A DNA stretch of 64,000 nt from an uncultured Acidimicrobiia bacterium (GTDB taxonomy: Bacteria > Actinomycetota > Acidimicrobiia > Acidimicrobiales > AC-14). Shown here piece by piece: positions 525 to 47,322 of this stretch (positions are counted from its first letter, which is position 1; the number at the start of each line of letters is the position of its first letter). The notes beneath the pieces are model-generated. The model was given only the letters and a program-made list of their open reading frames with translations, ran no database searches and was not told where the DNA came from. The position numbers were made by a program, and so were the translations under genes. The stretch lies in assembly GCA_963836205.1 (NCBI GenBank), contig CAWIIV010000006.1:416001-480000 (forward strand). Direction: 5' to 3'.

Positions 525-2200
525 CCGCTCCCGTCCGGCCCGTTCCCCCGGTCAGAATCGTCTTCCTCGGGGGGCTGGGGGAGATCGGTCGCAACTGCGC
601 CATCGTCGAGCAGGACGACCGCCTCATGATCCTCGACTGCGGGTTGATGTTCCCCGACGCGGAGATGCTCGGCGTCGACCTGGTCCTGCCCGACTTCACC
701 TGGCTGCGGGAGAACGCCCACCGGGTCGAGGCCTGCATCATCACCCACGGCCACGAGGACCACATGGGCGGCCTGTCCTACCTGCTGCGCGACCTGTCGT
801 TCCCGATCTACGGGTCGCACCTCACCCTGGGCCTGGCCCGGAACCGCATCGAGGAAGCGGGGCTCCTCCACCGCACCGAGCTCATCCCCGTGGTCGACGG
901 CGAGCGGCGGCGGATCGGCCCCTTCGACTGCGAGTTCATCCCCGTCACCCACTCGGTGCCCCACGGCTTCGCCACCGCCTTCCACACCCCCCAGGGCGTG
1001 ATCCTGCACTCGGGCGACTTCAAGATCGACCTCACGCCCGTCGACGGCCGCTGCACCGACCTGGCCCGCATCGGCGCCCTGGCCGCCGGCCCCGGCATCC
1101 GCCTGCTGCTGGCCGACTCCACCAACGCCGAGGAGCCGGGCCACACCGCCACCGAGAGCTCGGTGGGCAAGGTCCTGCGCACCCTGTTCGCGGAGCACAC
1201 CGACAAGCGGGTCATCACCGCCTGCTTCGCCAGCCACATCCACCGGGTGCAGCAGATCGCCGACGCGGCCGTGGCCAACGGCCGGGTGGTGGCCACCCTG
1301 GGCCGGTCGATGGCCAAGAACGTGGCCCTCGCCCGCCAGATGGGCCTGCTCACCATCCCAGACGACTCCCTGGTCGACATCGAGCGCATCGGCGACCACG
1401 ACCCCCGCCGGGTGTGCGTGATCTCCACCGGCTCCCAGGGCGAGCCCATGTCGGCCCTGTCCCTCATGGCCGCGGGCGAGAACAAGTGGCTCAAGGTGGG
1501 CGACGGCGACGTGATCATCATCAGCGCCCACGCCATCCCCGGCAACGAGTACAGCGTGAACAAGGTGATCGACGGCCTCTACCGCCTGGGAGCGGAAGTG
1601 GTGCACTCGGGGCTGGCCGACGTCCACGTCACCGGCCACGCCAAGAGCGAGGAGCTCAAGACCCTCCTCAGCCTGGCCAAGCCGGCCGCCTTCATCCCCG
1701 TCCACGGCGAGTTCCGCCACCTCACCCACCACGCCCGCCTGGCCATCGAGATGGGCGTGGCCGAGCACAACGTGCTCCTGGCCGAGGACGGCGACGTCAT
1801 CCAACTGTCCGACGAGGGCATCGACTTCGTCGACTCCGTCCCCGCCGGCTACCTCTACGTCGACGGCATCGTGGGCGACGTCGGCCACGGGGTGCTCCGC
1901 GACCGCCGGGTGCTCTCGGAGGAGGGCGTGATCGTGGTGGTGGTCACCGTCGACGTCAAGAGCGGCGAACTGCTGGCCCGCCCCGAGATCATCACCAAGG
2001 GTTGGGTCTTCGCCCCCGAGGCCGAGGCCCTCCTGGAAGAAGCCCGCCAGCGGGTGGTGGAAACGCTCGCCCAGGCGGCCAGCGAGGGCGCCTCCGACAT
2101 CGAGACGCTCAAGCGCCACGTGCGCCAGGCGGTGGGACGGTTCGTCAACGAAAAGACCAGGCGGCGACCTATGATCGTCCCCGTGGTGATGGAGGCCTGA
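521..2200 (+). CDS. rnj: Ribonuclease J
   Basis: LGGLGEIGRN, THGHEDHMGG, HSGDFK and HVTGHA metallo-beta-lactamase/beta-CASP motifs; TTG start overlaps the dapA stop. Confidence 0.95.
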   Translation: MTAPVRPVPPVRIVFLGGLGEIGRNCAIVEQDDRLMILDCGLMFPDAEMLGVDLVLPDFTWLRENAHRVEACIITHGHEDHMGGLSYLLRDLSFPIYGSHLTLGLARNRIEEAGLLHRTELIPVVDGERRRIGPFDCEFIPVTHSVPHGFATAFHTPQGVILHSGDFKIDLTPVDGRCTDLARIGALAAGPGIRLLLADSTNAEEPGHTATESSVGKVLRTLFAEHTDKRVITACFASHIHRVQQIADAAVANGRVVATLGRSMAKNVALARQMGLLTIPDDSLVDIERIGDHDPRRVCVISTGSQGEPMSALSLMAAGENKWLKVGDGDVIIISAHAIPGNEYSVNKVIDGLYRLGAEVVHSGLADVHVTGHAKSEELKTLLSLAKPAAFIPVHGEFRHLTHHARLAIEMGVAEHNVLLAEDGDVIQLSDEGIDFVDSVPAGYLYVDGIVGDVGHGVLRDRRVLSEEGVIVVVVTVDVKSGELLARPEIITKGWVFAPEAEALLEEARQRVVETLAQAASEGASDIETLKRHVRQAVGRFVNEKTRRRPMIVPVVMEA

Positions 2201-2550
2201 TGTCCGACTCCCCCCTGTCTGACTCCCCCCTGTCTGACTCGCCGATGAGTGGCGGGCCGATGACGAAGGACGAACTGTCCGACACGCTGCGGGCGATGGC
2301 TCCCGACGAGGGGGAGACGCTCTACATCGAGCGCCGGGGCGACGACTACGCCTGGTCCGAGGGCAACGGCCTGGAGAACGCGGCCACCCTCCCCGACGCC
2401 TGGATCTCCTACACCGGGCGCTGGCCGGCCCACGACGCCGAGAAGTGGCGGGAGTTCTTCGCCGACCTCATCGCCGAGCTGGAGTCGATGACCGGCAACG
2501 CCGACCGCTGCCGCTGGCCCCTCGACGACCCCTGGAGCCACCACCACTGA
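2200..2550 (+). CDS. Hypothetical protein (~116 aa) with N-terminal SDSPL repeats
   Basis: ATG overlaps the rnj stop; high-GC3 codon usage; true start may be the later MTKDELS. Confidence 0.65.
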   Translation: MSDSPLSDSPLSDSPMSGGPMTKDELSDTLRAMAPDEGETLYIERRGDDYAWSEGNGLENAATLPDAWISYTGRWPAHDAEKWREFFADLIAELESMTGNADRCRWPLDDPWSHHH

Positions 2551-2732
2551 GTGATCGGGGGAAGGGCGGGCCTTCCCCCCGAACCCCCTCCCGGGGTGCC
2601 GGCCCGGCGGCCGGCGGGGGGCCATCCGAAGCGGCCGCCTGCGGCGGCGTGGGCGGCCGGCTGGGAAAACCTTGAACCACCAGGGCGCGAAGGTGCTGGT
2701 GGGCGGGTTGTTTCGGCGGGGACAGGTCTCCC

Positions 2733-2761
2733 TTGCCGGGTTGGGGGCTTGTAGATACACT
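2733..2761 (+). promoter_or_regulatory. Putative sigma-A promoter of the three-gene membrane microprotein operon
   Basis: TTGCCG-17 nt-TACACT, followed by GGAGG and a TTG start at 2794. Confidence 0.5.
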
Positions 2762-2793
2762 GCCCGCACACAGCAGCCCGGGGGAGGCCAATA

Positions 2794-3048
2794 TTGGAAG
2801 CTGACAGTCTGGCAGGTTGGTACGTCGGCTACGTCATAGCAGCCGTCGTAATCGTTTTGGTGGTTGCTCTCGTGGCCATCATCCTGTCTCTCGTACGGCG
2901 CATCGGGCAGCAGGCCGGAGCGGTCGTCGACGTGCTCGACGATGTCCGCAAGAACACGACGTCGATTCCGGCAGTCGCCACGCTCAACCAGGCGCTGCTC
3001 TCCGTCGTCAACCACGCCGCTACCGCCCGTAAGGCCCTAGGAGGCTAA
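2794..3048 (+). CDS. Single-pass membrane/coiled-coil microprotein 1 (HylTM-like)
   Basis: GGAGG RBS; hydrophobic helix YVIAAVVIVLVVALVAIILSLV followed by an amphipathic helix. Confidence 0.8.
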   Translation: MEADSLAGWYVGYVIAAVVIVLVVALVAIILSLVRRIGQQAGAVVDVLDDVRKNTTSIPAVATLNQALLSVVNHAATARKALGG

Positions 3049-3050
3049 GA

Positions 3051-3326
3051 ATGGTTTTCGGACTCGCATCGGAACACGAGCTGTTCTGGTGGATCACGTT
3101 GGGCCTGGGGGCGGTCGTCATCTCGGCCGTGATCCTGCTCCTGTTCCTGCTCCTCCAGTACGTGAAGGACGTCGGCCGCGGTGTCCAGGCCATCTGGGAC
3201 ATGGCCAGCCGGGTCGCGGCCCAGACGGTGTGCACCTGGATGCTCCCGACCACGGTCGAGATGTGCAAGGCCCTCCGCGAGGAGCTCGGCCTCCACGTCA
3301 AGCTGCTCACGCCGGCCGGAAAGTAG
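3051..3326 (+). CDS. Single-pass membrane/coiled-coil microprotein 2 (HylTM-like)
   Basis: GGAGG RBS; TM helix WWITLGLGAVVISAVILLLFLLL followed by an amphipathic helix. Confidence 0.8.
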   Translation: MVFGLASEHELFWWITLGLGAVVISAVILLLFLLLQYVKDVGRGVQAIWDMASRVAAQTVCTWMLPTTVEMCKALREELGLHVKLLTPAGK

Positions 3327-3338
3327 GGGGAGACTGAC

Positions 3339-3596
3339 ATGATCGCTCTGCAAGTCGTACTTACCTGCGTCGAGATCGTTCTCCTCGCCGGCGTCCTCGT
3401 CTACTTCCTCCGGGCCATCGACGCCCAGCTGGTGGGCGTCGTCGACAACCTGGTCAAGATCTCCAAGGGCGTGAAGGCGGTCGAGGACCACTGCGCCATC
3501 ATCGGCCCAGGTGCCGACCAGGTGAACCGCATCCTCGGCGAGGCCGCTGGTGGCCTCACCCAGGCGTGCGTGCTGGCCGAGGGCCTCAGCGCCTAA
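3339..3596 (+). CDS. Single-pass membrane/coiled-coil microprotein 3 (HylTM-like)
   Basis: GGAG RBS; TM helix VVLTCVEIVLLAGVLVYFL followed by a heptad helix. Confidence 0.8.
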   Translation: MIALQVVLTCVEIVLLAGVLVYFLRAIDAQLVGVVDNLVKISKGVKAVEDHCAIIGPGADQVNRILGEAAGGLTQACVLAEGLSA

Positions 3597-3667
3597 AGCC
3601 ACAACCCATCGAAGGGGACTCGTTCCCCGGACAAGAGCGGCGCCGGTTCTCCGGCGCCGCTCTTGCC

Positions 3668-3714
3668 TTTCAGGACCGGCTGCTTTTCAGGACCGGCTGC
3701 TTTTCAGGACCGGC
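3668..3714. repeat. 17-bp tandem repeat x~3 (ttttcaggaccggctgc)
   Basis: Direct repeat visible; duplicates the 3' end of the convergent minus-strand gene. Confidence 0.85.
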
Positions 3715-4261
3715 GGAGGGCCAGGACGAGGGCCCCGGCCGCCAACACCGCCGTCCCGACGTCGGAGAGGGTGCCTCCGAGCACGAAGCCGAGGGAGTCG
3801 TCGGCGTCGGCGGCGATCATGACGTCGACCACCACGACGGCCGCGCCCACCGCCACCAGCCAGCCCGCGGCCACGCCCACCATGAGCCGGGCCGTGGCCG
3901 CCAGGGCGGCCGAGCCCGCGGCCAGCACCGCGCCCACTGCCAGGGCGGCTCCCACCGCGATCCCTCCCCCACCTCCACCGGCGAAGGAGAAGCCGCTGAG
4001 GCCGACGATCTTGGCCCGCAGCTTCCAGGAGTCGTCGTCCCCTGAGATCCCGTCGAGGGTGAGGCCGGAGATCAGGGCTCCGGCCAGCACCAGCAGGCAG
4101 GCGGTGGCGATCACCAACGCCACCGTGGGGTTGGCGTCACGGCCGGAGGCGCCGCCCGCAGGTCGGTCGGGCGACCAGGGTTGATAGGTGCCGCTCACGC
4201 CGGGCTCCTTCGTCGGGAGGTAGAGGCCCGCGGAGTGTGACACAGCGGCAGCGGCCGACAC
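3704..4261 (-). CDS. Hypothetical multi-pass membrane protein
   Basis: About four Ala/Val/Leu-rich hydrophobic segments; start uncertain. Confidence 0.6.
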   Translation of the reverse strand: MSAAAAVSHSAGLYLPTKEPGVSGTYQPWSPDRPAGGASGRDANPTVALVIATACLLVLAGALISGLTLDGISGDDDSWKLRAKIVGLSGFSFAGGGGGGIAVGAALAVGAVLAAGSAALAATARLMVGVAAGWLVAVGAAVVVVDVMIAADADDSLGFVLGGTLSDVGTAVLAAGALVLALRRS

Positions 4262-4482
4262 GCGGGGCCGGCGCCCCCCAACTACCAGAACGGTCCCCGG
4301 CGCCGCGCCAGAGGGCTCTCAGAGGGCCGTGGCGGGCCGTGGCGGGGCCGGGCCGAGAGGTACGGGCTCGCCGGCGCCGTTCTCCCGTTTGGACCCGGAC
4401 GCGCCACTGCGCCGAGCGTCGGCTCGGCGCAGCAAGGTGGACCGAAGGCCGCGGCCGCCAGCGGGGATGAACGCCAACGACG

Positions 4483-4528
4483 AATGCCCGTCCCGCGTGC
4501 CGGCGATCCGGCACCCGGGACGGGCATT
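4483..4528 (-). terminator. Long GC-rich hairpin downstream of the minus-strand operon
   Basis: aatgcccgtcccg-c-gtgccgg / ccggcac-c-cgggacgggcatt inverted repeat 15 nt after the stop at 4544. Confidence 0.65.
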
Positions 4529-4543
4529 TCGCCCGGTCAGGCT

Positions 4544-4957
4544 TTAGCGACCCTTGGCGCGGGCGACAGCCGCGGCCATCTTGGACGCACCCGGGGCGAC
4601 AGACCCGGAGGCCGGAGCCGCCGCTGCGCCGCGGGGTCGAGCAGCACCGCGGGCCGGGGCCGGGGGCGGGGCCTTGTGCGGGGACGGCTTGCCGGCGGCC
4701 TTGGCCGCAAGCGCCGCGCCGACGAGCTCGAGGAGGCCCTCGAGGTCGTCGTCGATACCCAGCACGTCACCGGCGATTCCACCGACGACCCGGTTGACGG
4801 GGTCGGTCTGGCGCTTGATGTTCTGCACCGCCTCGACGATGGTGTCGAGGGCGGAGGTGACGACCTTCAGGCCAGCGGCGATCGCAATGAGGTGGTAGGC
4901 GATGGCCAGAACGATCACGGCGACCACGATCAGCGTGGCCACAGTTTCGGGTCCCAT
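4544..4957 (-). CDS. Single-pass membrane/coiled-coil microprotein 5 (HylTM-like) with Ala/Pro/Lys tail
   Basis: AAGGAG RBS; TM helix VATLIVVAVIVLAIAYHLIAI; helix IKRQTDPVNRVVGGI. Confidence 0.8.
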   Translation of the reverse strand: MGPETVATLIVVAVIVLAIAYHLIAIAAGLKVVTSALDTIVEAVQNIKRQTDPVNRVVGGIAGDVLGIDDDLEGLLELVGAALAAKAAGKPSPHKAPPPAPARGAARPRGAAAAPASGSVAPGASKMAAAVARAKGR

Positions 4958-5002
4958 GGAACTCCTTCTTGTTCTCGGGTTGCCGGGTAACTACAGAGAG
5001 GG

Positions 5003-5251
5003 CTACAGCGCCCGGAGCAGGGCCGCGCCGTACCTGCCCACCAAGCGGCGGGCCGCAGTGGACAACTCGTTGGTCTTGACCAGCTTGGGCACCGCGTCGA
5101 GCCGCCGGCTGATGCCGCCCGCACCGGAGATGATCTCGCCGGCCAGCCCCTGGATCGTCTTGATGCGCCCCAGAACGCTTGCCGCGCTCTTCGCCACTAC
5201 CAGACCGGCAAGCAACATGACGACGATGCCCACCCACCACAAAACAACCAT
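5003..5251 (-). CDS. Single-pass membrane/coiled-coil microprotein 4 (HylTM-like)
   Basis: AAGGT RBS; TM helix LWWVGIVVMLLAGLVV; helix LDAVPKLVKTNEL. Confidence 0.8.
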   Translation of the reverse strand: MVVLWWVGIVVMLLAGLVVAKSAASVLGRIKTIQGLAGEIISGAGGISRRLDAVPKLVKTNELSTAARRLVGRYGAALLRAL

Positions 5252-5479
5252 CTACCTTTCCCCCTTGTCTCGGTCCACGGCCGGATTCCGTCGGCGCCGG
5301 CTCTGATCCTGGGATCAGACGGTGCCGCCGAAGCGGCCCTGCTGTACCTCATCTGCCGGCCGTCTCCCGGAGGAGCCAGCCGGTACCACGTCGACCTTCG
5401 CCCCGCTGTTCGCGGCGGATGCAGGGAGGACGGTAGACGGCCCGAGCCACACGTGTCGAGTGGCAAACGCAAAGTCACC

Positions 5480-5600
5480 CCCACGACCCTGCAACCGACC
5501 CCGAAAACCTGGACCGGAGGCCCCGAAAACCTGCCACTGAGGCCCGGAAACCTGCACCTGAACCCAGGAAACCTGCACCTGAACCCAGGAAAGCAGAGGG
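5480..5600. repeat. Degenerate ~21-bp tandem array with AAACCTG core
   Basis: Core starts at 5505, 5527, 5548, 5569 and (variant) 5590; two exact copies of ggaaacctgcacctgaaccca. Confidence 0.75.
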
Positions 5601-5710
5601 GGCCGGCCCCGCGGCCGACCCCTTCCCGTGCAATCTTCCATCGGCGAGCCCACGTGCGCCGTGACTCCCAGGGGCGCCGACCTCGCTCAACTCAAGCCGC
5701 CGGGTTCAAC

Positions 5711-5923
5711 TCACGCGCGCCGGAGGCCCTCGAGGGCGCCCCTGCCGGACTTCAACAGCTGGCTGGCCATGGGGATGGCGCCGTTCATGGCACCGCTGAG
5801 GGCCTTGGTGACCTCGCCCGACGAGGCCATGCCGGTGACGGCCCGCTTCACGTTGCCCAGGCTCTCAGAGCCGGACTTGGCGCCGACGAACCAGCCGACG
5901 GCAACCCCGATCAGAACGCCCAT
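5711..5923 (-). CDS. Small membrane-anchored protein (70 aa)
   Basis: GGAGG RBS, start overlaps the hypC end; N-terminal GVLIGVAVGWFVGAK anchor. Confidence 0.7.
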   Translation of the reverse strand: MGVLIGVAVGWFVGAKSGSESLGNVKRAVTGMASSGEVTKALSGAMNGAIPMASQLLKSGRGALEGLRRA

Positions 5924-6204
5924 TTCGAAACCTCCGAAGGTTCGTCGAATCCATCGAACTCGTCTTGGGCGTCGTCAGACGGCCCCCGCATCATCACCAG
6001 GCCACGCATGGCGTTCTCAGCTTCGGCGGCGTCGATCTTCTGCATGGCGAAGCCGACGTGGATGAGGACCCACTCGCCCGGCACGACGCCGCCCTCGATG
6101 AGGCCGGTGTTGACGTTGCGCTTCTCCCCCATGACGTCGATCGTCGCCAGGTCAGAGTGCTCTGGCACCAGCTCGACAACCTTCCCGGGAATCCCGAGGC
6201 ACAT
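5911..6204 (-). CDS. hypC: HypC/HybG/HupF hydrogenase maturation chaperone
   Basis: MCLGIPGKV N-terminus and VLIHVGFAM motif; AAGGAGG RBS. Confidence 0.93.
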   Translation of the reverse strand: MCLGIPGKVVELVPEHSDLATIDVMGEKRNVNTGLIEGGVVPGEWVLIHVGFAMQKIDAAEAENAMRGLVMMRGPSDDAQDEFDGFDEPSEVSKWAF

Positions 6205-6285
6205 CGTGGTTCCTCCTTCACGGGCTCGGTGCGATGACGCGGTGCGACGCCAACGCAGTTCCCAAGCCCCAGCGACGAAACGACC

Positions 6286-6359
6286 CCGACATCGTCCAAG
6301 TCAGTGTCGACTTCGGTCGGTGAGGATCGATCATCCCCACCGACCGCAGACGATGTCGG
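6286..6359 (-). other. Predicted three-way-junction RNA structure upstream of hypC
   Basis: Nested inverted repeats of 11 bp, 14 bp (one G-U on the minus-strand RNA) and 5 bp. Confidence 0.45.
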
Positions 6360-6531: not shown

Positions 6532-6636
6532 TCACATCTCCCGAATCTTGAGGTAGCGCTGGATGTCGGGGAGGGAGTTGACGACCATCCCTGCCACCAC
6601 TGCCACGACCAGGCTCTTTACCAACTTACCGAGCAT
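6532..6636 (-). CDS. 34-aa membrane peptide, DUF6893-like paralog 1
   Basis: MLGKLVKSLVVAVVAGMVVNSLPDIQRYLKIREM; AAGGAG RBS; motif recalled from group 1h hydrogenase clusters. Confidence 0.8.
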   Translation of the reverse strand: MLGKLVKSLVVAVVAGMVVNSLPDIQRYLKIREM

Positions 6637-6637
6637 T

Positions 6638-7138
6638 TCAGCTCTCCTTTCCGGCAACAAGTGCCGACATCTCTTGCTGGAGCAGTTCTCCCACCACCTG
6701 TACCGCCTTGTCAACAGCCACCGCTACTGCCGGAGAGAGACCCATTCGCTCCTCCAGCTCGGCTGGTTCACAACCGACCACCAACAGCCGCCTGACCTCT
6801 CCACCGAGGTCGGCGAGCAAAGCCAACACTGCCAACGGATGCATCTCGTGTGCATCGACATCAACCTCGTCTCGATCGAAATCGAGGTCGGGCTCGAAAA
6901 GATACACCGTACCGGGCTCGTCGCCCCGGGGAAGTGCGTCGAGCAGGATTACCAGGTCGTAGTCGTTGTCCCGCAGGTCGTAGGCCAGGTGGAGGCCCCG
7001 TATCCCGTAGTCGATGACTGACACCCCTTCGGGCACCGGTTCGTGACTCAACCGCAGCGCCAGCTCGACGCCGAAGGCGTCGTCGGCCAGGAAGATGTTG
7101 CCGATACCGGCAACGAGGATGTTGGGTCGGGCCGTCAC
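6638..7138 (-). CDS. Hydrogenase maturation protease (HupD/HyaD family)
   Basis: ILVAGIGNIFLADDAFG, DYGIRGLHLAYDL, DAHEMHP and VVGCEP motifs. Confidence 0.9.
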   Translation of the reverse strand: MTARPNILVAGIGNIFLADDAFGVELALRLSHEPVPEGVSVIDYGIRGLHLAYDLRDNDYDLVILLDALPRGDEPGTVYLFEPDLDFDRDEVDVDAHEMHPLAVLALLADLGGEVRRLLVVGCEPAELEERMGLSPAVAVAVDKAVQVVGELLQQEMSALVAGKES

Positions 7139-7141
7139 CGT

Positions 7142-7176
7142 GCACTCATTGGGACAGGCGCACTCATTGGGACAGG
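7142..7176. repeat. 17-bp direct repeat x2 (18-bp period)
   Basis: gcactcattgggacagg at 7142 and 7160, duplicating the stop region of the upstream gene. Confidence 0.8.
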
Positions 7177-8684
7177 ACCTCGACCTCGTGGATCCGGAAG
7201 TAGCGGAACCGGCCGATCCAGCTCGGGAGCTCGGTCGCAGCCGGGTCGTCGTCGACGGAGACCGCCAGGTGGATGTCGCCGTCGATGTCGTGGAAGACGC
7301 CCTCCACGGTGGCTGTGAGGCCCACCAGGAACATGTCCTGGGCATCGGAGCGGTTGCCGGGGTGGAGGCGCACCTTGGCCCCCTTGCCCACCTGCACGCC
7401 GCTCAGCCGGGTGGTGTCCTCGAACGGCTTGTAGCGGGCGTCGGTCTCGGCGTCGAGGCGGACGTTGCCGATGAGGCCGTCGGCGTCGGTGCTGAAGGTG
7501 GGGAAGTCGTCGCCGTTCCCAGCCAGGCCGCCACCAAACTCGTTGGCGAAATCGGAGCCGAACGGGGCCATGTCGCCCGTGCCGAGCCCGGAGTCGACCT
7601 CGTCGTCGTCCTCGTCGTCGTCGTCGTCGACCACGGCGTTGCCGGGGAGGGGGATGGAGCGCAGCGACCGGATGGCGCCGTGGAGCTTCTCCATCATCTC
7701 CGGGGGCATGTTCTCGACCCGGTCCATGATGGCGGCCGACCGGGGGTCGGTGCCGCGGGCCTCGGCCCGCTCCTCCTCGGTCAAGGTGTTGACGAAGAGG
7801 TGGAGCATCTCGTCGACCTCGGTGGCGTCGTAGAAGTCGCCTTCGCTCTCAGGAGCGATCTCCGGGTAGTCGGACAGGGTGATCGGCGACGACAGGATCG
7901 TGTTGCGGTGGTCTTCGTCGCCGATGAGGCACGGCCAGGTGCCGGCGTTGACGCAGCCGGCGACGGCCGGCTTGGCGAACTCGGGCGGGTCGGCCAGGGA
8001 GATGAACGAGCCGTTGCGCACCTCGAGGAGGGTGTGGACGGCCGCCATGCAGTAGCGGACGAACTCCTCCCGGGCCGCCCCGTGCTTGGCCCAGTCGGTG
8101 AGGTTCTCGATGACGACCCGGACCTTGACGATCGAGAACGGGCTGTCGTCGCGCTCGGCGCTGACCCGGGCCACGGCCGTGAGGGGCACCGTCTCCCGGA
8201 TCATGCGGCCGACGAGGGTGCCTTCCTTGTCGGTGATGTCCTCGGTGGAGTGGGAGGCGGGGAAGTCGAGGGGCATGTCGCGGCCATGGGCGACGAGATC
8301 GGCCAGCGGCACCTCGGCCAGGTCGATCTCCTCCTCGATGGCCTCCTGCCAGTCGGTGATGATGCGGTCGTCGACGGTGAGCGACGCCACCGGCCGGAAG
8401 TAGCGGTCGCCCGCATCGGTCTCGACCAGCGCCTCGACGCTGCGGGACTGCACCCGCAGGAAGCGCAGCTTGACGTCGAGGACGGGCTCCCGGCTGGAGT
8501 CGACCAGGACCTCGGTCTGCATCGACCACCGCTCACCGGGGTCGAGCTCGGCCACCGACTTGGGGGCGACCACGCCGAACTGCCAGCGGACCTGGCTCTT
8601 GAGGCTCTTGGCCCGGTACGGGAACAGGACGTAGCCCTCGTAGAGGACGGCGTCGGCCACCCTGCGGGCGTCGGCCAGGCTCAC
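7164..8684 (-). CDS. Conserved hypothetical protein of group 1h hydrogenase clusters
   Basis: ADAVLYEGYVLFPYR...VRWQFG N-terminus, LSSPITLSDYPEIAPES core, DAQDMFL...GRFRYF C-terminus. Confidence 0.8.
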   Translation of the reverse strand: MSLADARRVADAVLYEGYVLFPYRAKSLKSQVRWQFGVVAPKSVAELDPGERWSMQTEVLVDSSREPVLDVKLRFLRVQSRSVEALVETDAGDRYFRPVASLTVDDRIITDWQEAIEEEIDLAEVPLADLVAHGRDMPLDFPASHSTEDITDKEGTLVGRMIRETVPLTAVARVSAERDDSPFSIVKVRVVIENLTDWAKHGAAREEFVRYCMAAVHTLLEVRNGSFISLADPPEFAKPAVAGCVNAGTWPCLIGDEDHRNTILSSPITLSDYPEIAPESEGDFYDATEVDEMLHLFVNTLTEEERAEARGTDPRSAAIMDRVENMPPEMMEKLHGAIRSLRSIPLPGNAVVDDDDDEDDDEVDSGLGTGDMAPFGSDFANEFGGGLAGNGDDFPTFSTDADGLIGNVRLDAETDARYKPFEDTTRLSGVQVGKGAKVRLHPGNRSDAQDMFLVGLTATVEGVFHDIDGDIHLAVSVDDDPAATELPSWIGRFRYFRIHEVEVLSQ

Positions 8685-8694
8685 GAGCCAAACC

Positions 8695-9441
8695 TCACGA
8701 GGAGGCCCCGTTGCCGGTGGCGCCGTTGGAGGGCGCCCCGACCTCGGCGCCCTCGGCGGCCTTGGCCGCCTTGGGCTCGGGCGCACCGGACGCGTCCATC
8801 AGCCCGTTGGGCAGGTCGGCCTCGCCCAGGAGGACGTCGAACGTGCGCTCCCAGGAGGTGAGGCCCCGGATGGTGCGGAAGCGCTCCAGCTTGTCCATGG
8901 TGGCCCGCTCGAAGCGGATCCAGGCCTGGCCCGGGAAGTAGATGTCCATCACCGCTCGCCAGATGCCCGAGGGCAGGCCGAAGCGGGCCTCCTTGTTCCA
9001 CGGCACCGGCTCGATGGAGAAGCCGGACTCCCCCTTGGAGATGATGGTGCCGTTGAACAGCAGGTTGACGGGCACGTCGCCCGTCTCGATGGCGTGCAGG
9101 AACTTGGTGGAGGCCAGCTCCCAGTCGTAGGTGAGCGGCACCTGGATGTCGATCTCGACGCTGTCGGTGAACTGGGTGACCATGGTGCCCACCGTCGACC
9201 AGAAGAAGGGCTTGAGCGTCTGCCCCCAGCGCTCGCGCTCTCCGAACTGGGCGAGGAGGCGCTGCTCCTCCTCCGGCTCGTAGCGGCGGCGCTGGGGCTC
9301 GATCATGATCTGGGTGCGGAGGGCGACGGCGTAGATGCTGTCGCCGCTCGTCTCCGAGATGCGCACCTTGAACGTGATCGTCGGTGCGGCGCAGAAGCGC
9401 TCGGGCGCGACGCCGACGACCTCGAACTCGAGATCGCTCAC
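8695..9441 (-). CDS. DUF6084-family hydrogenase accessory protein
   Basis: GTGA overlap with the upstream gene; LRTQIMIEPQRRRY, FGERERWGQTL and VPWNKEA motifs. Confidence 0.8.
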   Translation of the reverse strand: MSDLEFEVVGVAPERFCAAPTITFKVRISETSGDSIYAVALRTQIMIEPQRRRYEPEEEQRLLAQFGERERWGQTLKPFFWSTVGTMVTQFTDSVEIDIQVPLTYDWELASTKFLHAIETGDVPVNLLFNGTIISKGESGFSIEPVPWNKEARFGLPSGIWRAVMDIYFPGQAWIRFERATMDKLERFRTIRGLTSWERTFDVLLGEADLPNGLMDASGAPEPKAAKAAEGAEVGAPSNGATGNGASS

Positions 9442-10145
9442 GTTTGGCTCGTGACAGCCGGCTGTGCTCGCCCTCGGACTCGAGTGAAGAAGTCGGCCAT
9501 GGCCTGGTGGGCCTCGGTGCCGCCGTCGAAGCCCCGCCACAGGCGGCGGAGGTACCCCACCAGCTCGTAGCAGGCGTCGATGGGCACGATGAAGGACTCG
9601 TCGGGCCCGGAGCGGTCGCCCACCCGCACCAGCAGGGCCTCGATGTCGGCCTGCATGGTGGTGAGCACGGGGTTGGACTCGGCCATCTCCGCCCAGGTGT
9701 CGACGGGCAGGAGGGACTCGGTGGCGCCGGCGGGGCTGGGGTAGAAGGCCACCAGCTGCTCGGCCTCGGAGTTGAAGAAGAAGAACGCGGTGCTGACCGG
9801 GATCTGCAGGTTGTCCCACTGGTTGGGGGTCAGGGCCACCTTGTCCATCGACACGTAGCGGTCGGGGACGGCCTTGTAACGCCCGCCTCCCGCCCCACCG
9901 GAGGTGAAGAGCAGGTAGCACGGGCGGCAGGCGCAGAGCAGGCTGCGGCTCTCGATGTTGACGATGTGCGGGTGTTCGTCGGGGACGTCGACCGCGCACA
10001 TCTCGCACTTCTCACCGGGTCGGGGGCGAGGCTTCGGTTGCAGCAGCTTCTCGATGGCTGCGAACGGCCGGGCCTCTTCCTTCTCGCCCCCCTCGGGGTT
10101 GAGCGCCCGGAACGAGCCGAGCCGTAGAAAGTCAGGATTCGACAT
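9438..10145 (-). CDS. DUF5947-family hydrogenase accessory protein
   Basis: CEMC...HPH...LLCACRPC, FYPSPAGATESLL and VPIDACYELVG motifs. Confidence 0.85.
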   Translation of the reverse strand: MSNPDFLRLGSFRALNPEGGEKEEARPFAAIEKLLQPKPRPRPGEKCEMCAVDVPDEHPHIVNIESRSLLCACRPCYLLFTSGGAGGGRYKAVPDRYVSMDKVALTPNQWDNLQIPVSTAFFFFNSEAEQLVAFYPSPAGATESLLPVDTWAEMAESNPVLTTMQADIEALLVRVGDRSGPDESFIVPIDACYELVGYLRRLWRGFDGGTEAHQAMADFFTRVRGRAQPAVTSQT

Positions 10146-10150
10146 GCGGG

Positions 10151-10720
10151 TTACCGGTTCGCAGCGACAGGTTTGACGCTGAGCTGGATCGGGGCCGAAG
10201 CGGGCAACGGCGCGGCCACAGGTGCGGTCGGGTCGACGTAGCCCTCCACCTGGATGTCGGTGATCTCGGGTGCAGCCTCGTGGATCGCCTGCTCGACGGA
10301 GAGCTTGAGGGTGACCGACGACGACGGACAGCCGTCGCAGCTCCCCAGGAGGCGAACTCGCACGATTCCCTCGTTGGCGAGTATGTCGAGCAACTCGACG
10401 TCGCCACCGTGGGACTCAAGGTAGGGCCGCACCGAGTCGAGGGCCTTCTCCACACGGGTGGGAAGGTCGTCGGGGTGCAGGCCGTGGAGGACGAGCAGGC
10501 TGCTCACCAGCTCGTCATGGACGATTTCTGCGATGAGTGGAGTGGCCTCGGCGTCGACGAGGATCTCGAGGATCCGGTCGAGAGCACCGCCGTAGAGCTG
10601 TGCTACCAAGCCAAGTGCTTCCTCGGCCAGAGCCCAGGTCGCCGGCTGTGCCGACGACCTGAGCTCGCTGACCAAGTACTCAATGCGGTCACCGACCGCA
10701 CGAAGGTTCGTTGCGCTGAT
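10151..10720 (-). CDS. NifU-like Fe-S protein of the hydrogenase cluster (start uncertain, possibly ATC)
   Basis: LLVLHGLHP, VRPYLESHGGDVEL and LGSCDGCPSS motifs; frame is open back to the hhyL stop. Confidence 0.85.
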   Translation of the reverse strand: MSATNLRAVGDRIEYLVSELRSSAQPATWALAEEALGLVAQLYGGALDRILEILVDAEATPLIAEIVHDELVSSLLVLHGLHPDDLPTRVEKALDSVRPYLESHGGDVELLDILANEGIVRVRLLGSCDGCPSSSVTLKLSVEQAIHEAAPEITDIQVEGYVDPTAPVAAPLPASAPIQLSVKPVAANR

Positions 10721-10723
10721 GAT

Positions 10724-12502
10724 TTACTCCCCGGTGTTGACCATGGTGGGCGAGTGCAGCTTCTTGACCATCTTGCCCTTGCCCAGGTACATGTGCACAC
10801 CACAGGGCAGGCAGGGGTCGAAGCTACGCACGGCACGCATGATGTCGATGCCCTTGAAGTTCTCACGGCTGTTCTCTTCGAAGATCGGCGTGTTCTGCAC
10901 CGCGTCCTCGTAGGGGCCGGGAGTGCCGTAGATGTCACGCGGGTTGGCGTTCCACGGCGTCGGGGGGTACGGGTGGTAGTTGGCGATCTTGCCACCACGG
11001 ATGACCATGTGGTGGGAGAGAACGCCACGGACGGCCTCGGTGAAACCGCAACCGATCGCCTCGTCGGGGACCGTGAACGGCTCCCAGGTCTTGGTGTGGC
11101 CGGCGCGGACTTCCTCGAGAGCCTTCTCGACGAAGTACATGCCACAGCCAGCCGCGTAGGCCTGGAAGTAGGTGCGGGCCCGGTGACGCTCGATCGTGTT
11201 GGACCACTTCGGCACGTGCCACTCGAAGCTCGCCTCAGGCTTGAGGGCGGTCTTCGGGAGGTTGATGATGATGGAGTTGCCGGTTGCCTTGACCCAGCCG
11301 ATGTCGACCAGACCGGACAGCGCGATGGCCATCATCCGGGCGAAAGCACCACCACCGGTGTCGGTGGCGAGGTGGTCGCGTCCGTCGTACCAACGGGGAG
11401 CCATGACCCAGCTGTACTTGCCGTCGAAGTTGCGCTTCTGCGGCTGCGGGATCGTGTGCTGGTTCCACGGGTGGTTGCGGTCAACCGCGTTGCCCAGGGG
11501 GTCACGGTCGACGAACATCTCCTGGCCTTCCCAGCTCTCGTAGTACGAGTGGCCGAGCAGGATGCGGAGACCGAGGTTGATGTCGACCAGGTCGTTCGTG
11601 ACCAGCTTGCCGTCGACGACGATACCGGGGGTGACGAACATCGCACGTCCCCACTCGGTCATGTCGCGGTAACGGAAGTTGCACACGTTCGGGTCCTGGA
11701 AGGCGCCCCAGCAGATGGTGAGGATACGGCGCTGGCCGTTGGCCTCGTAGCCGGGCATGGCCTCGTACACGAAGTCGAAGAGGTCGTCGTGGATCGGGAC
11801 GATCTTCTTCATGAACTCGCAGTAGCGCATCAGGCGCGCCATGTAGTCCGTGATGAGCTGGATGGAAGCCGTGGTGCCCATACCACCCGGGTACAGGGTG
11901 GACGGGTGCACGTGGCGACCCTCCATGAGGCAGAACATCTCACGCGTGTAGCGGCTGACCTGCAGCGCCTCACGGTAGAGGTCACCCGAGAACGGGTTGA
12001 GGGACCGCATGATGTCACCGATGGTGGCGTAGCCATGCTCGGCGGCACCGGGGGCCTCGGTGTCGTTCGCGAGGTCCAGGACGCCGGGGTTGGTCTCCGC
12101 GAACATCTTCTCGCAGAAGTCAACGCCGACCAGGTTCTCCTGGAAGATGTTGTGGTCGAACATGTACTCGGCTGCCTCGCCGAGGTTCAGGATCCACTCA
12201 CCCAGGTGCGGGGGCTGCACGTCGTACGCCATCTGCTGGCAGTAGCACGAGCACACGCAGTGGTTGTCACCACAGATACCGCAGATGCGGCTGGTGATGA
12301 AGTGGGCGTCCCGGGGGTCCTTGCCCTTCATGAAGATCGAGTAGCCACGGAAGATCGAGGAGGTGCTGTGACACTCGACGACCTTGCCCTGGGCGAAGTC
12401 GATCTTGGTGTAGATGCCCAGGGAGCCCACGATCCGGGTGACCGGGTCCCATGCCATCTCGACGAGGTCGCTGCCGCCTCGAGTCCTTGCCCTAGCTGCC
12501 AT
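10724..12502 (-). CDS. hhyL: [NiFe]-hydrogenase large subunit, group 1h (actinobacterial high-affinity type)
   Basis: WDPVTRIVGSLG; L1 motif TSRICGICGDNH; L2 motif SFDPCLPCGVH. Confidence 0.93.
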   Translation of the reverse strand: MAARARTRGGSDLVEMAWDPVTRIVGSLGIYTKIDFAQGKVVECHSTSSIFRGYSIFMKGKDPRDAHFITSRICGICGDNHCVCSCYCQQMAYDVQPPHLGEWILNLGEAAEYMFDHNIFQENLVGVDFCEKMFAETNPGVLDLANDTEAPGAAEHGYATIGDIMRSLNPFSGDLYREALQVSRYTREMFCLMEGRHVHPSTLYPGGMGTTASIQLITDYMARLMRYCEFMKKIVPIHDDLFDFVYEAMPGYEANGQRRILTICWGAFQDPNVCNFRYRDMTEWGRAMFVTPGIVVDGKLVTNDLVDINLGLRILLGHSYYESWEGQEMFVDRDPLGNAVDRNHPWNQHTIPQPQKRNFDGKYSWVMAPRWYDGRDHLATDTGGGAFARMMAIALSGLVDIGWVKATGNSIIINLPKTALKPEASFEWHVPKWSNTIERHRARTYFQAYAAGCGMYFVEKALEEVRAGHTKTWEPFTVPDEAIGCGFTEAVRGVLSHHMVIRGGKIANYHPYPPTPWNANPRDIYGTPGPYEDAVQNTPIFEENSRENFKGIDIMRAVRSFDPCLPCGVHMYLGKGKMVKKLHSPTMVNTGE

Positions 12503-12553: not shown

Positions 12554-13600
12554 CTAGCGCCAGGTGGGCGTGTAGCCGGTGAGGAGCTTGGTGCCCTTTG
12601 CACGCCACTTCGGCTCCTTGTCGACGGTCTTGCCGGTGACCTCGCGGAGGCCACGGATGACCGAGCCGTAGAGGCCGGAAGCCGCGGTGGAAACCTTGCC
12701 GCCCGGGGGCTCGTCCATGAAGGGCATGAACTTGTCGGGGAAGCCAGGCATGGTGCAGCCGATGCAGATACCACCGACGTTCGGGCAACCGCCCACACCG
12801 TTGGTCCAGCCACGCTTGGGGACGTTGCACTTGACGACGGGGCCCCAGCATCCGAGCTTCACGATGCACTTCGGGGAGCCGTACTCAGTGGCGAAGTCGC
12901 CCTGCTCGTAGTAGCCGGCCCGGTCACAGCCCTGGTGGACGGTGTTGCCGAACAGCCACGCGGGACGCAGCGCGTCGTCGAGCGGGATAAGCGGAGCCTG
13001 GCCAGTGGCCATGTAGAGCAGGTACAGGATCGTCTCGGACAGGTTGTCCGGGTGGATCGGGCAGCCGGGAACGTTGACGACCGGAAGACCGGCCTTCGAA
13101 CGCCAGCCCCAGCCGAGGTAGTCGGCGACGCCCATGGCGCCGGTGGGGTTACCCGACATGGCGTGCAGACCGCCGTAGGTGGCACACGTGCCGACGGCGA
13201 GAATGCCGGTGCACACGGGGGCCAGACGGTCGAGCCAGTCGCTCGTGGTCATGGGCTGGTCGGTGGCGGGGTTGTTGCCGAACCCGCACCAGTAGCCCTC
13301 GGACTTGATTGCCTCGTTCGGGATCGAACCCTCGACCACCAGCACGAAGGGCTCCAACTCGCCACGCTCGGCGCGGAAGAACCACTCCAGGAAGTCGTCA
13401 GCGCCACCGACCGGACCGCACTCGAAGTCGATCAACGGCCAGTGAACTGCGATCTTCGGAAGGCCGGGCAGTGCCTGGAGGGCGATCTCCTCGATGCTCG
13501 GCTGCGTTGCACTGGTGAGGGCTACGGAGTCTCCGTCGCAGCTAAGACCGGCCTGAATCCACAAGATGTGGATGACCGGCTCTGCGGATGCTGCTGCCAC
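12554..13600 (-). CDS. hhyS: [NiFe]-hydrogenase small subunit, group 1h
   Basis: GLSCDGDS (Asp in place of the second Cys), GTCATYGG, VPGCP, HQGCDR and GGICIGCTMPGFP motifs; no Tat signal; GTG start after GAGGGG. Confidence 0.92.
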   Translation of the reverse strand: MAAASAEPVIHILWIQAGLSCDGDSVALTSATQPSIEEIALQALPGLPKIAVHWPLIDFECGPVGGADDFLEWFFRAERGELEPFVLVVEGSIPNEAIKSEGYWCGFGNNPATDQPMTTSDWLDRLAPVCTGILAVGTCATYGGLHAMSGNPTGAMGVADYLGWGWRSKAGLPVVNVPGCPIHPDNLSETILYLLYMATGQAPLIPLDDALRPAWLFGNTVHQGCDRAGYYEQGDFATEYGSPKCIVKLGCWGPVVKCNVPKRGWTNGVGGCPNVGGICIGCTMPGFPDKFMPFMDEPPGGKVSTAASGLYGSVIRGLREVTGKTVDKEPKWRAKGTKLLTGYTPTWR

Positions 13601-13860
13601 TATGTGTACCCCCTCTTTCGGGCGCGCGTGCGCCAACTGCCGCTGGGAACCCGCTGCGCTATCGCCAACAGCGTTCTGCCGGTCAGATCTACTCCCTCCG
13701 GCACGGGCTTGTAAATAGGTGTCTTCTGACCGCTACATGGAAGGGCACTAGGTGTTCCACGTCCCCTCCGGCGGGGCACCCTAGCAGAATGTCCCGGAGC
13801 GGGCCGGGGCGGCCACGGACCGGGTTCGGGCCTGTTGCTGGTGTTACTCTTGTTGCCATT

Positions 13861-44585: not shown

Positions 44586-47181
44586 GTGACCGACCCTGAC
44601 GACGACCGCGCCGCGGACACGACCGGCGAGGTCGGCGCCCCCGACGCGGTCGCGCCCGATCCCGCGGCCGCCCCCGGGGACGAGAAGCGGGCGGCGAACG
44701 GCGAGGCCGCGGCCGTCCCGGGCGGAGTCGCGCCGGAGGAGGACGTGGGGGCGGCGAACGTGGTCGAGTCGGTGGACGATCCGACGGGCGCCGCGGCCGA
44801 GGCCGAGTCGGCGGGCGAGGGCGGACTCGACGCCGCGGACGATACGACGAGGGACGAGGCCGCCCCCCTCCTGGACCGGGGCATGGTCGGGACGGGCGAC
44901 GACGGGGCGGCGGCCGACGAGGTCGAGTCGGTGGGCGAGGACGGGGCGGCGGTCGACGAGTCGCCAGGCGACGGGGCCGCAGTCGAGGTCGACGCCGTGG
45001 ACGACGGCGAGGTCGGGACGGGCGACGCCCAGGGCACGCCCGACGGGGTCGGGTCGGTGAACGATGACGAGGCCGACGAGTCGCCAGGCGACGGGACCGC
45101 AGTCGAGGTCAACGCCGTGGACGACGACGAGGTCGGGGCGACCGACGACGGCGCAGAGACTGACGGCGGGGCGTCCGACGGCGGGGCGTCCGACGGCGGG
45201 GCGTCCGACGGCGGGGCGTCCGACGGCGGGGCGTCCGACGGCGGGGCGTCCGACGGCGGGGCGTCCGACGGCGGGGCGTCCGACGGCGGGGCGTCCGACG
45301 GCGGGGCGTCCGACGGCGGGGCGTCCGACGGCGGGGCGTCCGACGGCGGGGCGTCCGACGGCGGGGCGTCCGACGGCGGGGCGTCCGACGACGGGGCGTC
45401 CGACGGCGGCTCGGTGGACGGCGACGATGACGCGGCGGCGGACGAAATCGACCCCCCCGAGGTGGGCGCCTCCGGCGGCGGCGGTGGCGGCCGGTTCGAC
45501 GACGAAGACGACGACAGTCGGGACCGGGCGGACTTCTCGGGGGTCACGGCGCTCCTGCGGCGGTGGGGTGCGCTCCCGCCGGCCCGGCCGAAGCCGGCGA
45601 TCCTCGTGCCCCGGCGGGAGCAGGTCCTCGTCCACGCCGGCGCCCCGAGCGACACCGACGTCGACGAAGCCCCTCCGCCGCCACCCGCGGCCCCGGAGGC
45701 CGACGACTACGACCAGGTCAACCTCTCGCCCCTGATCGAGTGGGCCAAGGGTCGCGATCCTGTCCGGTGGACCCTCGGGGCCATGGTGGTGGTGTGGTCG
45801 TTGGTCTTCATCACCCTCGGCTGGCGCCGCCACGCCCACTTCGGCACCTTCGGCTTCGACCTCGGGATCTACGACCAGGGCATCTGGCTGCTGTCCCGCT
45901 TCAAGGACCCGTTCGTCACCGTTCGCGGCCTCGACCTGTTCGGGCACCACATGAACGTCATCCTGTTGCTCTTCGCCCCCTTCTACTGGCTCGGCGCGGG
46001 ACCCCTCTTCCTGCTCGTGGCCCAGGTGGCGGCCCAGGCGTCGGGGGCCGTCGCCATCTTCCTCCTCGCCCGCGACCGGCTCAAGGCCCGGTGGCCGGCG
46101 GTGGCGCTGGCCAGCGTCATCCTCCTCCACCCGAGCTACCAGTTCTTCGTCTGGGAGTACTTCCATCCCGACGTCCTGGCCATCGCCCCCCTTCTCTTCG
46201 CCTACTGGGCCGCCCGGGCCAAACGGTGGAAGTGGTTCGCGGTGGCCGCGGTGCTGGCCGTGGCCTGCAAGGAGGACGTGGCCCTGGCCGTGATCATGCT
46301 CGGCATCGTGATCGCCATCCGGGGCGACCGCCGCATCGGGGCGTTCGTGGCGGCGGCGGCCACCGCCTGGTTCGTGGCCGCCACCCGGATCTTCATCCCC
46401 CACTTCAACGGGATCGGCCCGTTCTACGAATCCTTCTTCGGGGAGTTCGGGCGCAGCCCGACCGAGGTCGTCGGCCACGTCGTGACCCACCCCGGCCGCA
46501 CCTTCGACGTCGCCACCGAGCCCGATCGCCTGAACTACTACCGGATGCTGTTCGCGCCGGTGGCGTTCCTCCCCGTCTTCGCCCTCTCGACCCTGCTCGT
46601 CGGCCTGCCCATGCTCGGGGTCAACGTGCTGTCGACCTTCCCCTACCAGCGGGACAGCAAGTTCCACTGGACGGCCATGATCCTGGCCGCCATCGTGCTG
46701 GCGACGGTGGAGGCCATCGCCTACCTCGGTCGGACACCCGCGGCCCGGGCCTTCCTGGTGGGGCTGGTGGTGGCCACGTCGTTGGCGTCCACCGTGGCCT
46801 GGGGACCGTCGCCGCTGGGCGTGAAATACCACAACGGGTACTGGCCCTTCGGCCCCGACGCCCGACTGGCGGCCAAGGAGGCGGCGGCCGCCCTCGTCCC
46901 CGACGGAGCCGCCACCAGCGCCGTCTACATCTTCGTCCCCCATCTCGCCCACCGGGAGAAGATCTACGAGTTCCCCGTGCCGTGGCAGACGATCAACTGG
47001 GGCGTCGACGGCGAGAACCCGCACGACCCGGCCGGGGTGGAGTGGCTCGTCGTCGACCGCCAGATCCTGAGCGAGAGCCGACAAGACCCTGATCGGCGGG
47101 CTGCTCGAGCGGGAGTTCGTGGTCCGTTACGACAACAACGACATCATGGCGGCGGAGCGCGTCAACCCACCGGACGGCTGA
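44586..47181 (+). CDS. DUF2079 (GT-C-like) membrane protein with a very long acidic N-terminal extension (apparent frameshift near 47075)
   Basis: [12 protein letters not shown] and KED motifs; multiple TM helices. Confidence 0.8.
45162..45410 (+). repeat. 15-bp in-frame VNTR encoding (DGGAS)n
   Basis: gacggcggggcgtcc x15 plus one variant and a partial copy. Confidence 0.95.
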
Positions 47182-47322
47182 CCGGGACGAGAAAGCTCAT
47201 TGCTTTTCCCGGAACCCGGCGTACTGTCGGAGTCACCCGCCACGGGCTCCGACTCGGCGCCGCCGGGCTCGGAGCGGGCAGGAAGGCCCCCGAAGATCGT
47301 CAGCACCCGACCTGGGAGGCCT

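Follow-up and report, generated by a model that had tools for sequence, protein, structure and literature searches.

A HylTM-like five-gene set beside a group 1h [NiFe]-hydrogenase in an uncultured Acidimicrobiia bacterium: a candidate membrane anchor

Group 1h [NiFe]-hydrogenases are the main biological sink for atmospheric H2, and we know of no settled route by which their electrons reach the respiratory chain; nor, to our knowledge, has an anchor been described for the mycobacterial 1h enzyme, which is membrane-associated. The question of a membrane partner for such an enzyme is raised by a 64,000-nucleotide stretch of DNA from an uncultured Acidimicrobiia bacterium (assembly GCA_963836205.1, contig CAWIIV010000006.1, positions 416,001 to 480,000 of the forward strand; the whole of this stretch is called the window), in which five small genes for single-pass membrane proteins, here called A to E, lie at the end of a 1h hydrogenase (hhy) gene cluster. 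Do these proteins hold the enzyme at the membrane? The reading favoured here is that A-E are orthologues of HylTM1-5, the five short transmembrane (TM) proteins of group 1l hydrogenases, that they were recruited to a 1h island and that they form a membrane anchor for its enzyme, and this statement as a whole is given a probability of roughly 0.62. The hybrid 1h + HylTM arrangement is new; the HylTM system of 1l enzymes is known, its role being itself only predicted. The five genes are as follows (lengths in amino acids, aa).

2794..3048, plus strand: A, HylTM1-like single-pass protein, 84 aa, TTG start
3051..3326, plus strand: B, HylTM2-like single-pass protein, 91 aa, with a near-invariant TM helix
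3339..3596, plus strand: C, HylTM3-like single-pass protein, 85 aa
4544..4957, minus strand: D, HylTM5-like single-pass protein, 137 aa; a Pro/Ala-rich linker leads to a conserved tail at the C-terminus
5003..5251, minus strand: E, HylTM4-like single-pass protein, 82 aa

The sequence-only reading of this DNA had placed here five genes of 82-137 aa, each with a ribosome-binding site, in two converging units at the end of the hhy cluster. All five were found in place and the arrangement is as it had been described, with a GGAGG-like motif 5-12 nt 5' of each start. The GC content by codon position is coding-like (0.74-0.92 at the third position, GC3, vs 0.36-0.54 at the second), and the ratio of nonsynonymous to synonymous change (dN/dS), calculated against five relatives, was 0.10-0.64 in 25 of 25 pairwise comparisons. 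Because of these three lines of evidence, A-E are taken as genuine genes under purifying selection. Their synteny is kept in at least four Acidimicrobiales genera, and the spacer between the two units, 950 bp in the window, varies from ~0.3 to 3.4 kb between C and D among relatives. With D as the query, matches were obtained in 33 of 61 genomes, and in 29 of the 36 other genomes of the same family (22 of 29 once the seven unpublished genomes G008, G009, G015, G017, G021, G023 and G035 are set aside). Families A, B, C, D and E, collected from 20 loci around the D matches, comprise 13, 13, 12, 17 and 20 members. Pfam and NCBIfam gave no above-threshold match for any of the five proteins, tblastn of the genome itself gave no paralogues of A, B, C, D or E, and a protein-atlas search with B returned unannotated actinobacterial clusters only.

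According to the report of Ortiz et al. on group 1l enzymes (Hymenobacter roseosalivarius; 10.1101/2020.08.06.239558), five short predicted TM proteins, HylTM1-5, are encoded between hylS and hylL, a Rieske-type HylE and HupD come after hylL, and the 1l and 1h lineages share <40% identity. With the E alignment as the query, 39 of 301 genomes of the phylum had a match at an E-value of <=0.01, 21 of these at <=1e-5, the genome of the window being counted, and 16 regions around published matches were retrieved. Loci L115, L116 and L117, from one actinobacterial family, encode a small subunit (S) of 433-437 aa, five single-TM open reading frames (ORFs) of 89-104 aa and a large subunit (L) of 628 aa with 40% identity to HhyL, the large subunit of the window; L115 continues with a NifU+Rieske protein, HupD and HypF. 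This layout of S, five TM ORFs, L, Rieske protein and HupD has the published hallmarks of group 1l.

Profile hidden Markov models (HMMs) of the five families, built from Acidimicrobiales sequences only and from none of L115-L117, matched the five interposed ORFs of L115 in order: A at 3.9e-8, B at 3.1e-14, C at 1.2e-13, E at 1.6e-10 and D at 4.2e-16. When hhalign was run with the 1h-linked members only, the interposed ORFs being numbered TM1 to TM5, the probabilities were 97.6% for B-TM2, 97.7% for C-TM3, 97.0% for D-TM5 and 91.3% for E-TM4, while A-TM1, at 82.6%, was the best of the TM1 column. Reverse HMMs, made from the interposed ORFs, matched A (7.8e-6), B (7.2e-11), C (2e-8) and D (1.1e-7) of the window. 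The profile similarity to HylTM that had been proposed is thus found, one to one, with ORFs of the actinobacterial 1l-type loci, the Hymenobacter proteins themselves lying outside the comparison. Judged by these profiles, TM1, TM2, TM3, TM4 and TM5 have their respective orthologues in A, B, C, E and D. The canonical order is kept within A-B-C and within E-D, and the cassette is therefore split between TM3 and TM4.

The enzyme beside which the set lies is encoded, with its accessory proteins, by the following genes.

12554..13636, minus strand: HhyS, small subunit (PF14720 + PF01058), with no twin-arginine motif and no C-terminal extension
10724..12502, minus strand: HhyL, group 1h [NiFe]-hydrogenase large subunit by structure match, tree and identity to the pHG1 enzyme
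10151..10675, minus strand: NifU-domain protein (PF01106, 1.6e-23)
9438..10145, minus strand: DUF5947 protein (PF19372, 1.5e-69)
8695..9450, minus strand: DUF6084 protein (PF19562, 1.3e-78); the listed ORF extends to 10008, with the domain start near 9440
7164..8786, minus strand: conserved 540-aa protein of 1h clusters, no Pfam family
6638..7345, minus strand: HupD-type maturation protease (PF01750 at 9.8e-18, TIGR00072 at 2e-35), true start probably near 7120
6532..6714, minus strand: DUF6893 mini-protein (PF21833, 6.1e-12)
5911..6204, minus strand: hypC (PF01455, 6.7e-23)

HhyL matched chain 5aa5_C of the Protein Data Bank (PDB), the solved C. necator enzyme, with 1036 bits. It shares 73.5% identity with the pHG1 enzyme of C. 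necator and 76-78% with plasmid copies from Mycobacterium, Kitasatospora and Streptomyces. A tree of 24 large subunits groups HhyL with its relatives in a clade (support 100/100) whose branch measures 1.47 changes per site, apart from all of the 39-43%-identical, 1l-like enzymes. The assignment to group 1h was to be checked by phylogeny, and the tree places HhyL on the 1h side of that long branch; HhyL is accordingly classified as a true group 1h [NiFe]-hydrogenase. The genes hhyS and hhyL are adjacent, with a 51-nt gap, and the enzyme is, as had been read from the letters, without a twin-arginine translocation (Tat) signal, no RRxF motif being present in the first 40 residues of HhyS. At its C-terminus HhyS agrees in both length and motif with small subunits from 1h loci that are without the five-gene set. 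The row S, L, NifU, DUF5947, DUF6084, large hypothetical protein and protease is common with pHG1, in the same order, and the 1h accessory genes (NifU, DUF5947, DUF6084, large protein, protease and hypC) are common to 9-10 of 10 other actinobacterial 1h loci; homologues of the 540-aa protein occupy the same position in nine of those ten and in pHG1.

The block that holds all these genes extends over ~2.6-13.7 kb, between the RNase J gene rnj (plus a 115-aa ORF) and ftsK, beyond which lie recA, clpP, eno and secA. Because it is bounded in this way by rnj and ftsK and then by housekeeping genes, the hydrogenase genes and the five small genes are one island. It could have been that A-E are accounted for by a 1l hydrogenase elsewhere in the genome; none was found in this genome, which is 88.6% complete, and CoxL was not found in it either. 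One further hydrogenase and no more is present, another S+L pair of 1h type with 62% and 66% identity to the subunits of the window, which occurs on three contigs that are 99% identical to each other (C3, C4 and C5 of genome G000; loci L009 and L010). Neither accessory genes nor small TM genes lie near this pair, and the three contigs may be strain variants or assembly redundancy.

The linkage between the five-gene set and the 1h enzyme recurs in relatives. At nine of the 20 loci around D matches (L023-L030 and L041) the set adjoins a 1h cluster whose HhyL is 84-99% identical to that of the window. In one genus (L030) A-B has moved to the opposite end of the cluster, upstream of hhyS, with E-D downstream, so the linkage outlasts rearrangement of gene order. 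A B-family search, which used narrow patterns and reached loci of Acidimicrobiia metagenome-assembled genomes only, gave 44 loci, of which 14 carried 1h cluster genes, seven of these on contigs additional to those of the 20 loci.

The linkage has lineage limits. Counting a 1h-type L at >=58% identity, 39 other 1h-bearing genomes were present in the 301-genome sample (two of them, G078 and G297, unpublished), and in none did the 1h gene share its contig with an E-family match; four of the 39 had an E match somewhere in the genome. Where a 1l-like L was present (33-43% identical), an E match at 1e-5 or better was found in 15 of 15 genomes, three of which (G108, G179 and G207) are unpublished; these counts were made by hand from tables. 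Around the 1h genes of 10 other genomes, pHG1 and the second hydrogenase contig, 12 regions with 1964 ORFs of >=45 aa were scanned with ten HMMs; there was no match at 0.01, and the positive controls did match. Those ten loci and pHG1 share the 1h core genes and are without A-E. The 1h-linked B proteins, 12 in number, all belong to a single clade (SH-aLRT 99) within an Acidimicrobiales B clade that also holds copies from other contexts, and this pattern, on a tree with a short alignment, a quick method and an undefined root, fits a single recruitment by duplication. The system is best described from these data as a lineage-specific 1h + HylTM hybrid of one family of Acidimicrobiales. The 'hybrid 1h + HylTM' of the sequence-only reading is therefore borne out as homology and gene linkage, on the strength of the HMM and profile matches, the 1h tree and the genome's lack of a 1l enzyme, and that part of the reading is held to be very probably correct.

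The build of the five proteins bears on what they might do. A single N-terminal hydrophobic helix is present in each of A-E. The mean number of Lys and Arg residues (K/R) is 0-0.25 in the short N-terminal stubs vs 1.2-2.9 in the 15 residues after the helix, and from this distribution an N-out/C-in topology, with the helical tails in the cytoplasm, is predicted for all five. A common plan of helix, turn and helix had been proposed. It stood for E, in which the AlphaFold2 model (mean pLDDT 69) has a helix at residues 2-51, a break at 52-57 that coincides with the proposed 'LDAVP' turn, and a second helix at 58-81; it did not stand for B, which was modelled as one continuous helix from residue 3 to 86 (pLDDT 75). 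At the proposed turn position a conserved Pro or Gly-Pro is present in A, C, D and E, and none in B. Likewise, the claim that the five are mutually related holds for two paralogue classes, C with D and B with E, A being loosely tied to both: profile-profile probabilities were 95.5% for C-D, 86% for B-E, 70% for A-C, 66% for A-B, 51% for A-E and <25% for the rest. Note that these scores are inflated by the TM helices; pairwise BLAST among A-E was dominated by them and was not taken as evidence of kinship. HMMs from the 1l-type loci show the same split, with TM1, TM2 and TM4 cross-matching at 1e-10 to 1e-12 and TM3 cross-matching TM5.

In the B alignment (12 sequences) 33 columns are invariant, including W13, W14, L17, G18, L19, G20, V22, V23 and V27-L31. 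The TM helix, with its G-x-G motif, is thus nearly invariant between copies that are just 49-51% identical overall, and this speaks for specific packing between helices more than for a plain anchor. In the E alignment (20 sequences) W6, L51, P55, L57, L63, R73 and Y74 are invariant.

The role of the C-terminus of D deserves separate consideration. In the 1h-linked D proteins the last residues are a conserved tail, [SK]-M-x-[EA]-A-V-A-x-A-R, in which M127, A130, V131 and A134 are invariant in 13 of 13 copies; the linker before it is ~20 to 90 residues long and ranges in composition from Pro/Ala-rich to strongly acidic. The tail is present at 12 of the 14 1h-linked loci of the B-family search, the other two being truncated ORFs, and was found in none of five D copies from other contexts, nor in the interposed TM5 of the 1l-type loci. 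The C-terminus of the TM5 homologue is therefore a candidate specificity element. Prediction of a complex between HhyL, HhyS and the last 46 residues of D, made with no control runs alongside, gave a score of 0.14 vs a mark of 0.32, and speaks neither for nor against docking.

Transcription was assessed from RNA contigs. Those of four soil libraries, from as many studies and 90-99% alike, extend over A-B-C, D-E and hypC, and single RNA contigs span the A/B and B/C junctions, which is consistent with expression. The stretches 3668-4500 and 5362-5724 are without RNA contig cover, and no weight is placed on this, as intergenic DNA of relatives would not map at 90% identity. A promoter and terminator scan of 2200-6300 gave no promoter-like site and one hairpin.

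The favoured interpretation of these data is that a hetero-oligomeric bundle arises as the TM helices and the cytoplasmic coiled-coil segments of the five N-out/C-in proteins pack together, that this bundle would hold the cytoplasmic, Tat-less HhyS2L2 at the inner face of the membrane, and that it would bring the distal FeS cluster of HhyS2L2 near the quinone pool, as in a published model of a 1l enzyme. That AlphaFold3 model, of the Hymenobacter 1l hydrogenase, has the HylTM scaffold bound to the hydrogenase and is a prediction only; in it, the extension at the C-terminus of HylS adjoins the helices of the TM proteins (PMC13554262 / 10.1101/2025.11.03.686391). Docking of the 1h enzyme might instead proceed through the conserved tail at the end of the flexible linker of D; this is suggested because HhyS is without a 1l-type extension and the tail is limited to 1h-linked copies. 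A stalk that links the enzyme to the membrane and quinone pool is thus inferred from topology, conservation and the published 1l model.

Several observations weigh against this reading. On the side of homology, membership of the HylTM group rests on three loci of one actinobacterial family and not on the H. roseosalivarius proteins (between SMB94678 and SMB94698); hhalign scored A-TM2 (96.2%) above A-TM1, so that the A-TM1 pairing, based on HMM searches and gene order only, is the weakest of the five; and the reverse TM4 HMM failed to reach 0.01 on E of the window. On the side of function, HhyS lacks the C-terminal extension that adjoins the helices in the 1l model, and no Cys or His able to bind a cofactor is conserved across the 1h-, 1l- and CO-dehydrogenase (CODH)-linked copies. 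The RNA contigs are those of relatives, and some carried-over DNA may be among them. A 460-bp gap and the hairpin, itself not above chance, lie between E-D and hhy, and E-D may therefore be transcribed on its own. Binding, membrane location and electron transfer of A-E are proposed rather than observed, and the organisms are uncultured, while the function of HylTM is only predicted even in 1l systems. Finally, the module is not intrinsically a part of hydrogenases, because related sets adjoin CO-dehydrogenase-type genes; here the specific tie to hydrogenases that had been proposed does not survive.

These other contexts are of two kinds. Further sets were seen in relatives, within clusters whose hydrogenase shares 39-43% identity with HhyL and which contain two HupD genes as well as NifU, TPR, CooC-type and DUF1059 genes. 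The large subunit starts MCFKNLPIEFD, as in L115, and the small subunit has a C-terminal extension common with the S-5TM-L loci; E (82 aa) and D (86-108 aa) are paired and A-B-C lies a few kb further, so that these sets too have five genes. On the tree these 1l/1m-like enzymes sit next to the S-5TM-L type, whether they are labelled 1l or 1m. That the 42%-identical hydrogenase might be unrelated to 1l was considered and rejected on the MCFKNLPIEFD motif, the extended small subunit and the position on the tree beside the S-5TM-L loci. In genomes G018, G019 and G030 (L043-L046, L048 and L049) several 626-aa 1l-like L genes with the MCFKNLPIEFD start were seen with no S gene within ~9 kb on either side, and one of these genomes holds at least four such 'orphan' L genes. 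In two 1l/1m-like clusters (L042, 6577-8598, minus strand; L106, 6759-8875, plus strand) the space between E-D and A-B-C is taken by three single-pass proteins in tandem, each of 210-240 aa, whose C-terminal parts are repetitive, rich in Asn/Thr and end in Cys; the three of L106 gave weak matches (5e-6 to 1e-2) to the HMMs of families A, D and E.

The second context is found in four actinobacterial genomes, in which related sets adjoin coxS-coxL-xdhC-coxG (L110) or coxM-coxS-coxL (L111, L113 and L114). Their neighbourhoods contain coxS, coxL, coxM, coxG, xdhC/coxI and coxE, and 'CO-dehydrogenase-type' is used here by gene only and not by active-site motif. The D homologues linked to cox are as follows.

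L111, 9240-10004, minus strand: cox-linked D homologue
L113, 10205-10819, plus strand: cox-linked D homologue
L114, 10652-10963, plus strand: cox-linked D homologue

Cox-linked D has a conserved C-terminal extension of 120-170 aa with the stretch VYTRGTLxLARLGRExP, which in L114 is a separate ORF.

The cox-linked and the 1l/1m-like sets are also what favours the strongest of the alternatives, namely that A-E are a general membrane-docking module for other, or several, soluble oxidoreductases and lie near hhy through a shared 'trace-gas island'. This is considered unlikely for the window, as its genome has one set only and neither CoxL nor a 1l-type hydrogenase for that set to serve; moreover, the 1h-linked B proteins form a clade of their own, the 1h-linked D proteins have their own tail, and the linkage to 1h is kept in at least four genera.

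Somewhat less likely still is that A-E help to mature, assemble or regulate the hydrogenase at the membrane, perhaps by holding the apo-enzyme or sensing the state of the membrane, and are not a permanent stalk or electron path. Such a role would sit well with the position of the set among maturation genes (hypC, hupD and the NifU protein) at the distal end of the cluster and with the lack of conserved redox ligands in A-E. However, 1l loci place the five ORFs between both structural genes, which is typical of subunits, and a fixed hetero-oligomer accounts better than a chaperone does for five distinct paralogues, each of them conserved, and for the invariant TM helix. That A-E are unrelated small membrane or stress proteins of the DUF948 (PF06103) kind, near hhy by accident, is very improbable, since against the sub-threshold scores for that family stand synteny with hydrogenase clusters in every context examined, a single island between rnj and ftsK and the E match in all 15 genomes with a 1l-like enzyme. 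Membership of DUF948 was itself rejected: its members resemble A-E in having ~90 aa and an N-terminal TM helix followed by a helical region, but D scored 14.6 bits and the second and fifth interposed ORFs of L115 scored ~17 bits, far under the gathering cut-off of 37.2, and A, B, C and E gave no match.

With a recruited HylTM-type anchor as the preferred reading, a broader proposal can be put forward tentatively, and is thought rather less probable than the anchor itself. It could be that the five-protein set is a portable adaptor for membrane docking and quinone coupling, captured separately by 1l/1m-type, 1h and Mo-CO-dehydrogenase-type enzymes, with the choice of partner residing in exchangeable appendages. 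These would be the C-terminal extension of the small subunit in 1l, the linker and 12-residue tail of D in 1h, and the 120-170-aa extension of D, or the separate ORF, in the CO dehydrogenase loci. If true, this would be the first defined membrane partner for group 1h enzymes; a normally unanchored 1h enzyme could be tied to the membrane by such a module. Movement of the module between enzyme classes is shown by the present finding. A full-text literature search, to which supplements may hold more, gave no published tie of such proteins to 1h enzymes or to CO dehydrogenase.

Three further features lie in or next to the five-gene region.

3704..4261, minus strand: F185, Gly/Ala-rich ORF between A-B-C and E-D, doubtful and outside the conserved set
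5599..5622, minus strand: terminator-like hairpin between G70 and E, not above chance (mean of 1.5 in shuffles)
5711..5923, minus strand: G70, protein of 70 aa whose N-terminus is Gly-rich and hydrophobic; its gene overlaps the end of hypC

F185 was tried as a sixth member and rejected; its GC3 is coding-like, but tblastn gave a match at one of 22 loci (L041, 58%). G70 is present in the 1h clusters of this Acidimicrobiales family and was not found in the 10 other actinobacterial 1h loci, in pHG1 or on the second hydrogenase contig of the genome. The 115-aa ORF between RNase J and A (2203-2550, plus strand) is conserved, without a Pfam match, and syntenic in all same-genus loci. Elsewhere in the window a 959-aa ORF (44745-47621, plus strand) joins a DUF2079 membrane domain to a C-terminal WhiB domain, and may be a fusion or two genes merged by the ORF caller.

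Among known systems, HucM of the group 2a hydrogenase Huc of Mycobacterium smegmatis is alike in its proposed role, a helical scaffold that ties a cytoplasmic oxidiser of atmospheric H2 to the membrane and quinone pool. HucM, however, is one protein that forms a homotetramer, vs five different single-pass proteins here. The profiles differ too: those of B and E matched no PDB chain at an E-value up to 1, and that of D matched only designed coiled coils (best 4.1e-5), with the Huc entries 7utd, 7uur and 7uus in the set searched. Closer to the 1l/1m-like relatives are the group 1m clusters, whose published gene list matches that of the relatives and includes two single-TM proteins of 82-92 aa (Ray et al., PMC9561532); from their size and the gene list these two small proteins, known by that description, may be E and D.

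The nearest likeness is to HylTM1-5 of group 1l. Both systems have five short single-pass proteins with a predicted N-out/C-in helical build, beside a Tat-less hydrogenase of the high-affinity type. They differ in the partner, which is a 1l enzyme there and a 1h enzyme here; in gene position, the HylTM genes lying between S and L in 1l whereas A-B-C and E-D lie 5.5-8 kb downstream of hhyS-hhyL; and in D, whose linker and tail are not seen in the 1l TM5. A true 1h enzyme is thus joined to a module proposed to anchor 1l, while typical 1h clusters are without it, and the two together offer a natural contrast in which the role of the module can be tested.

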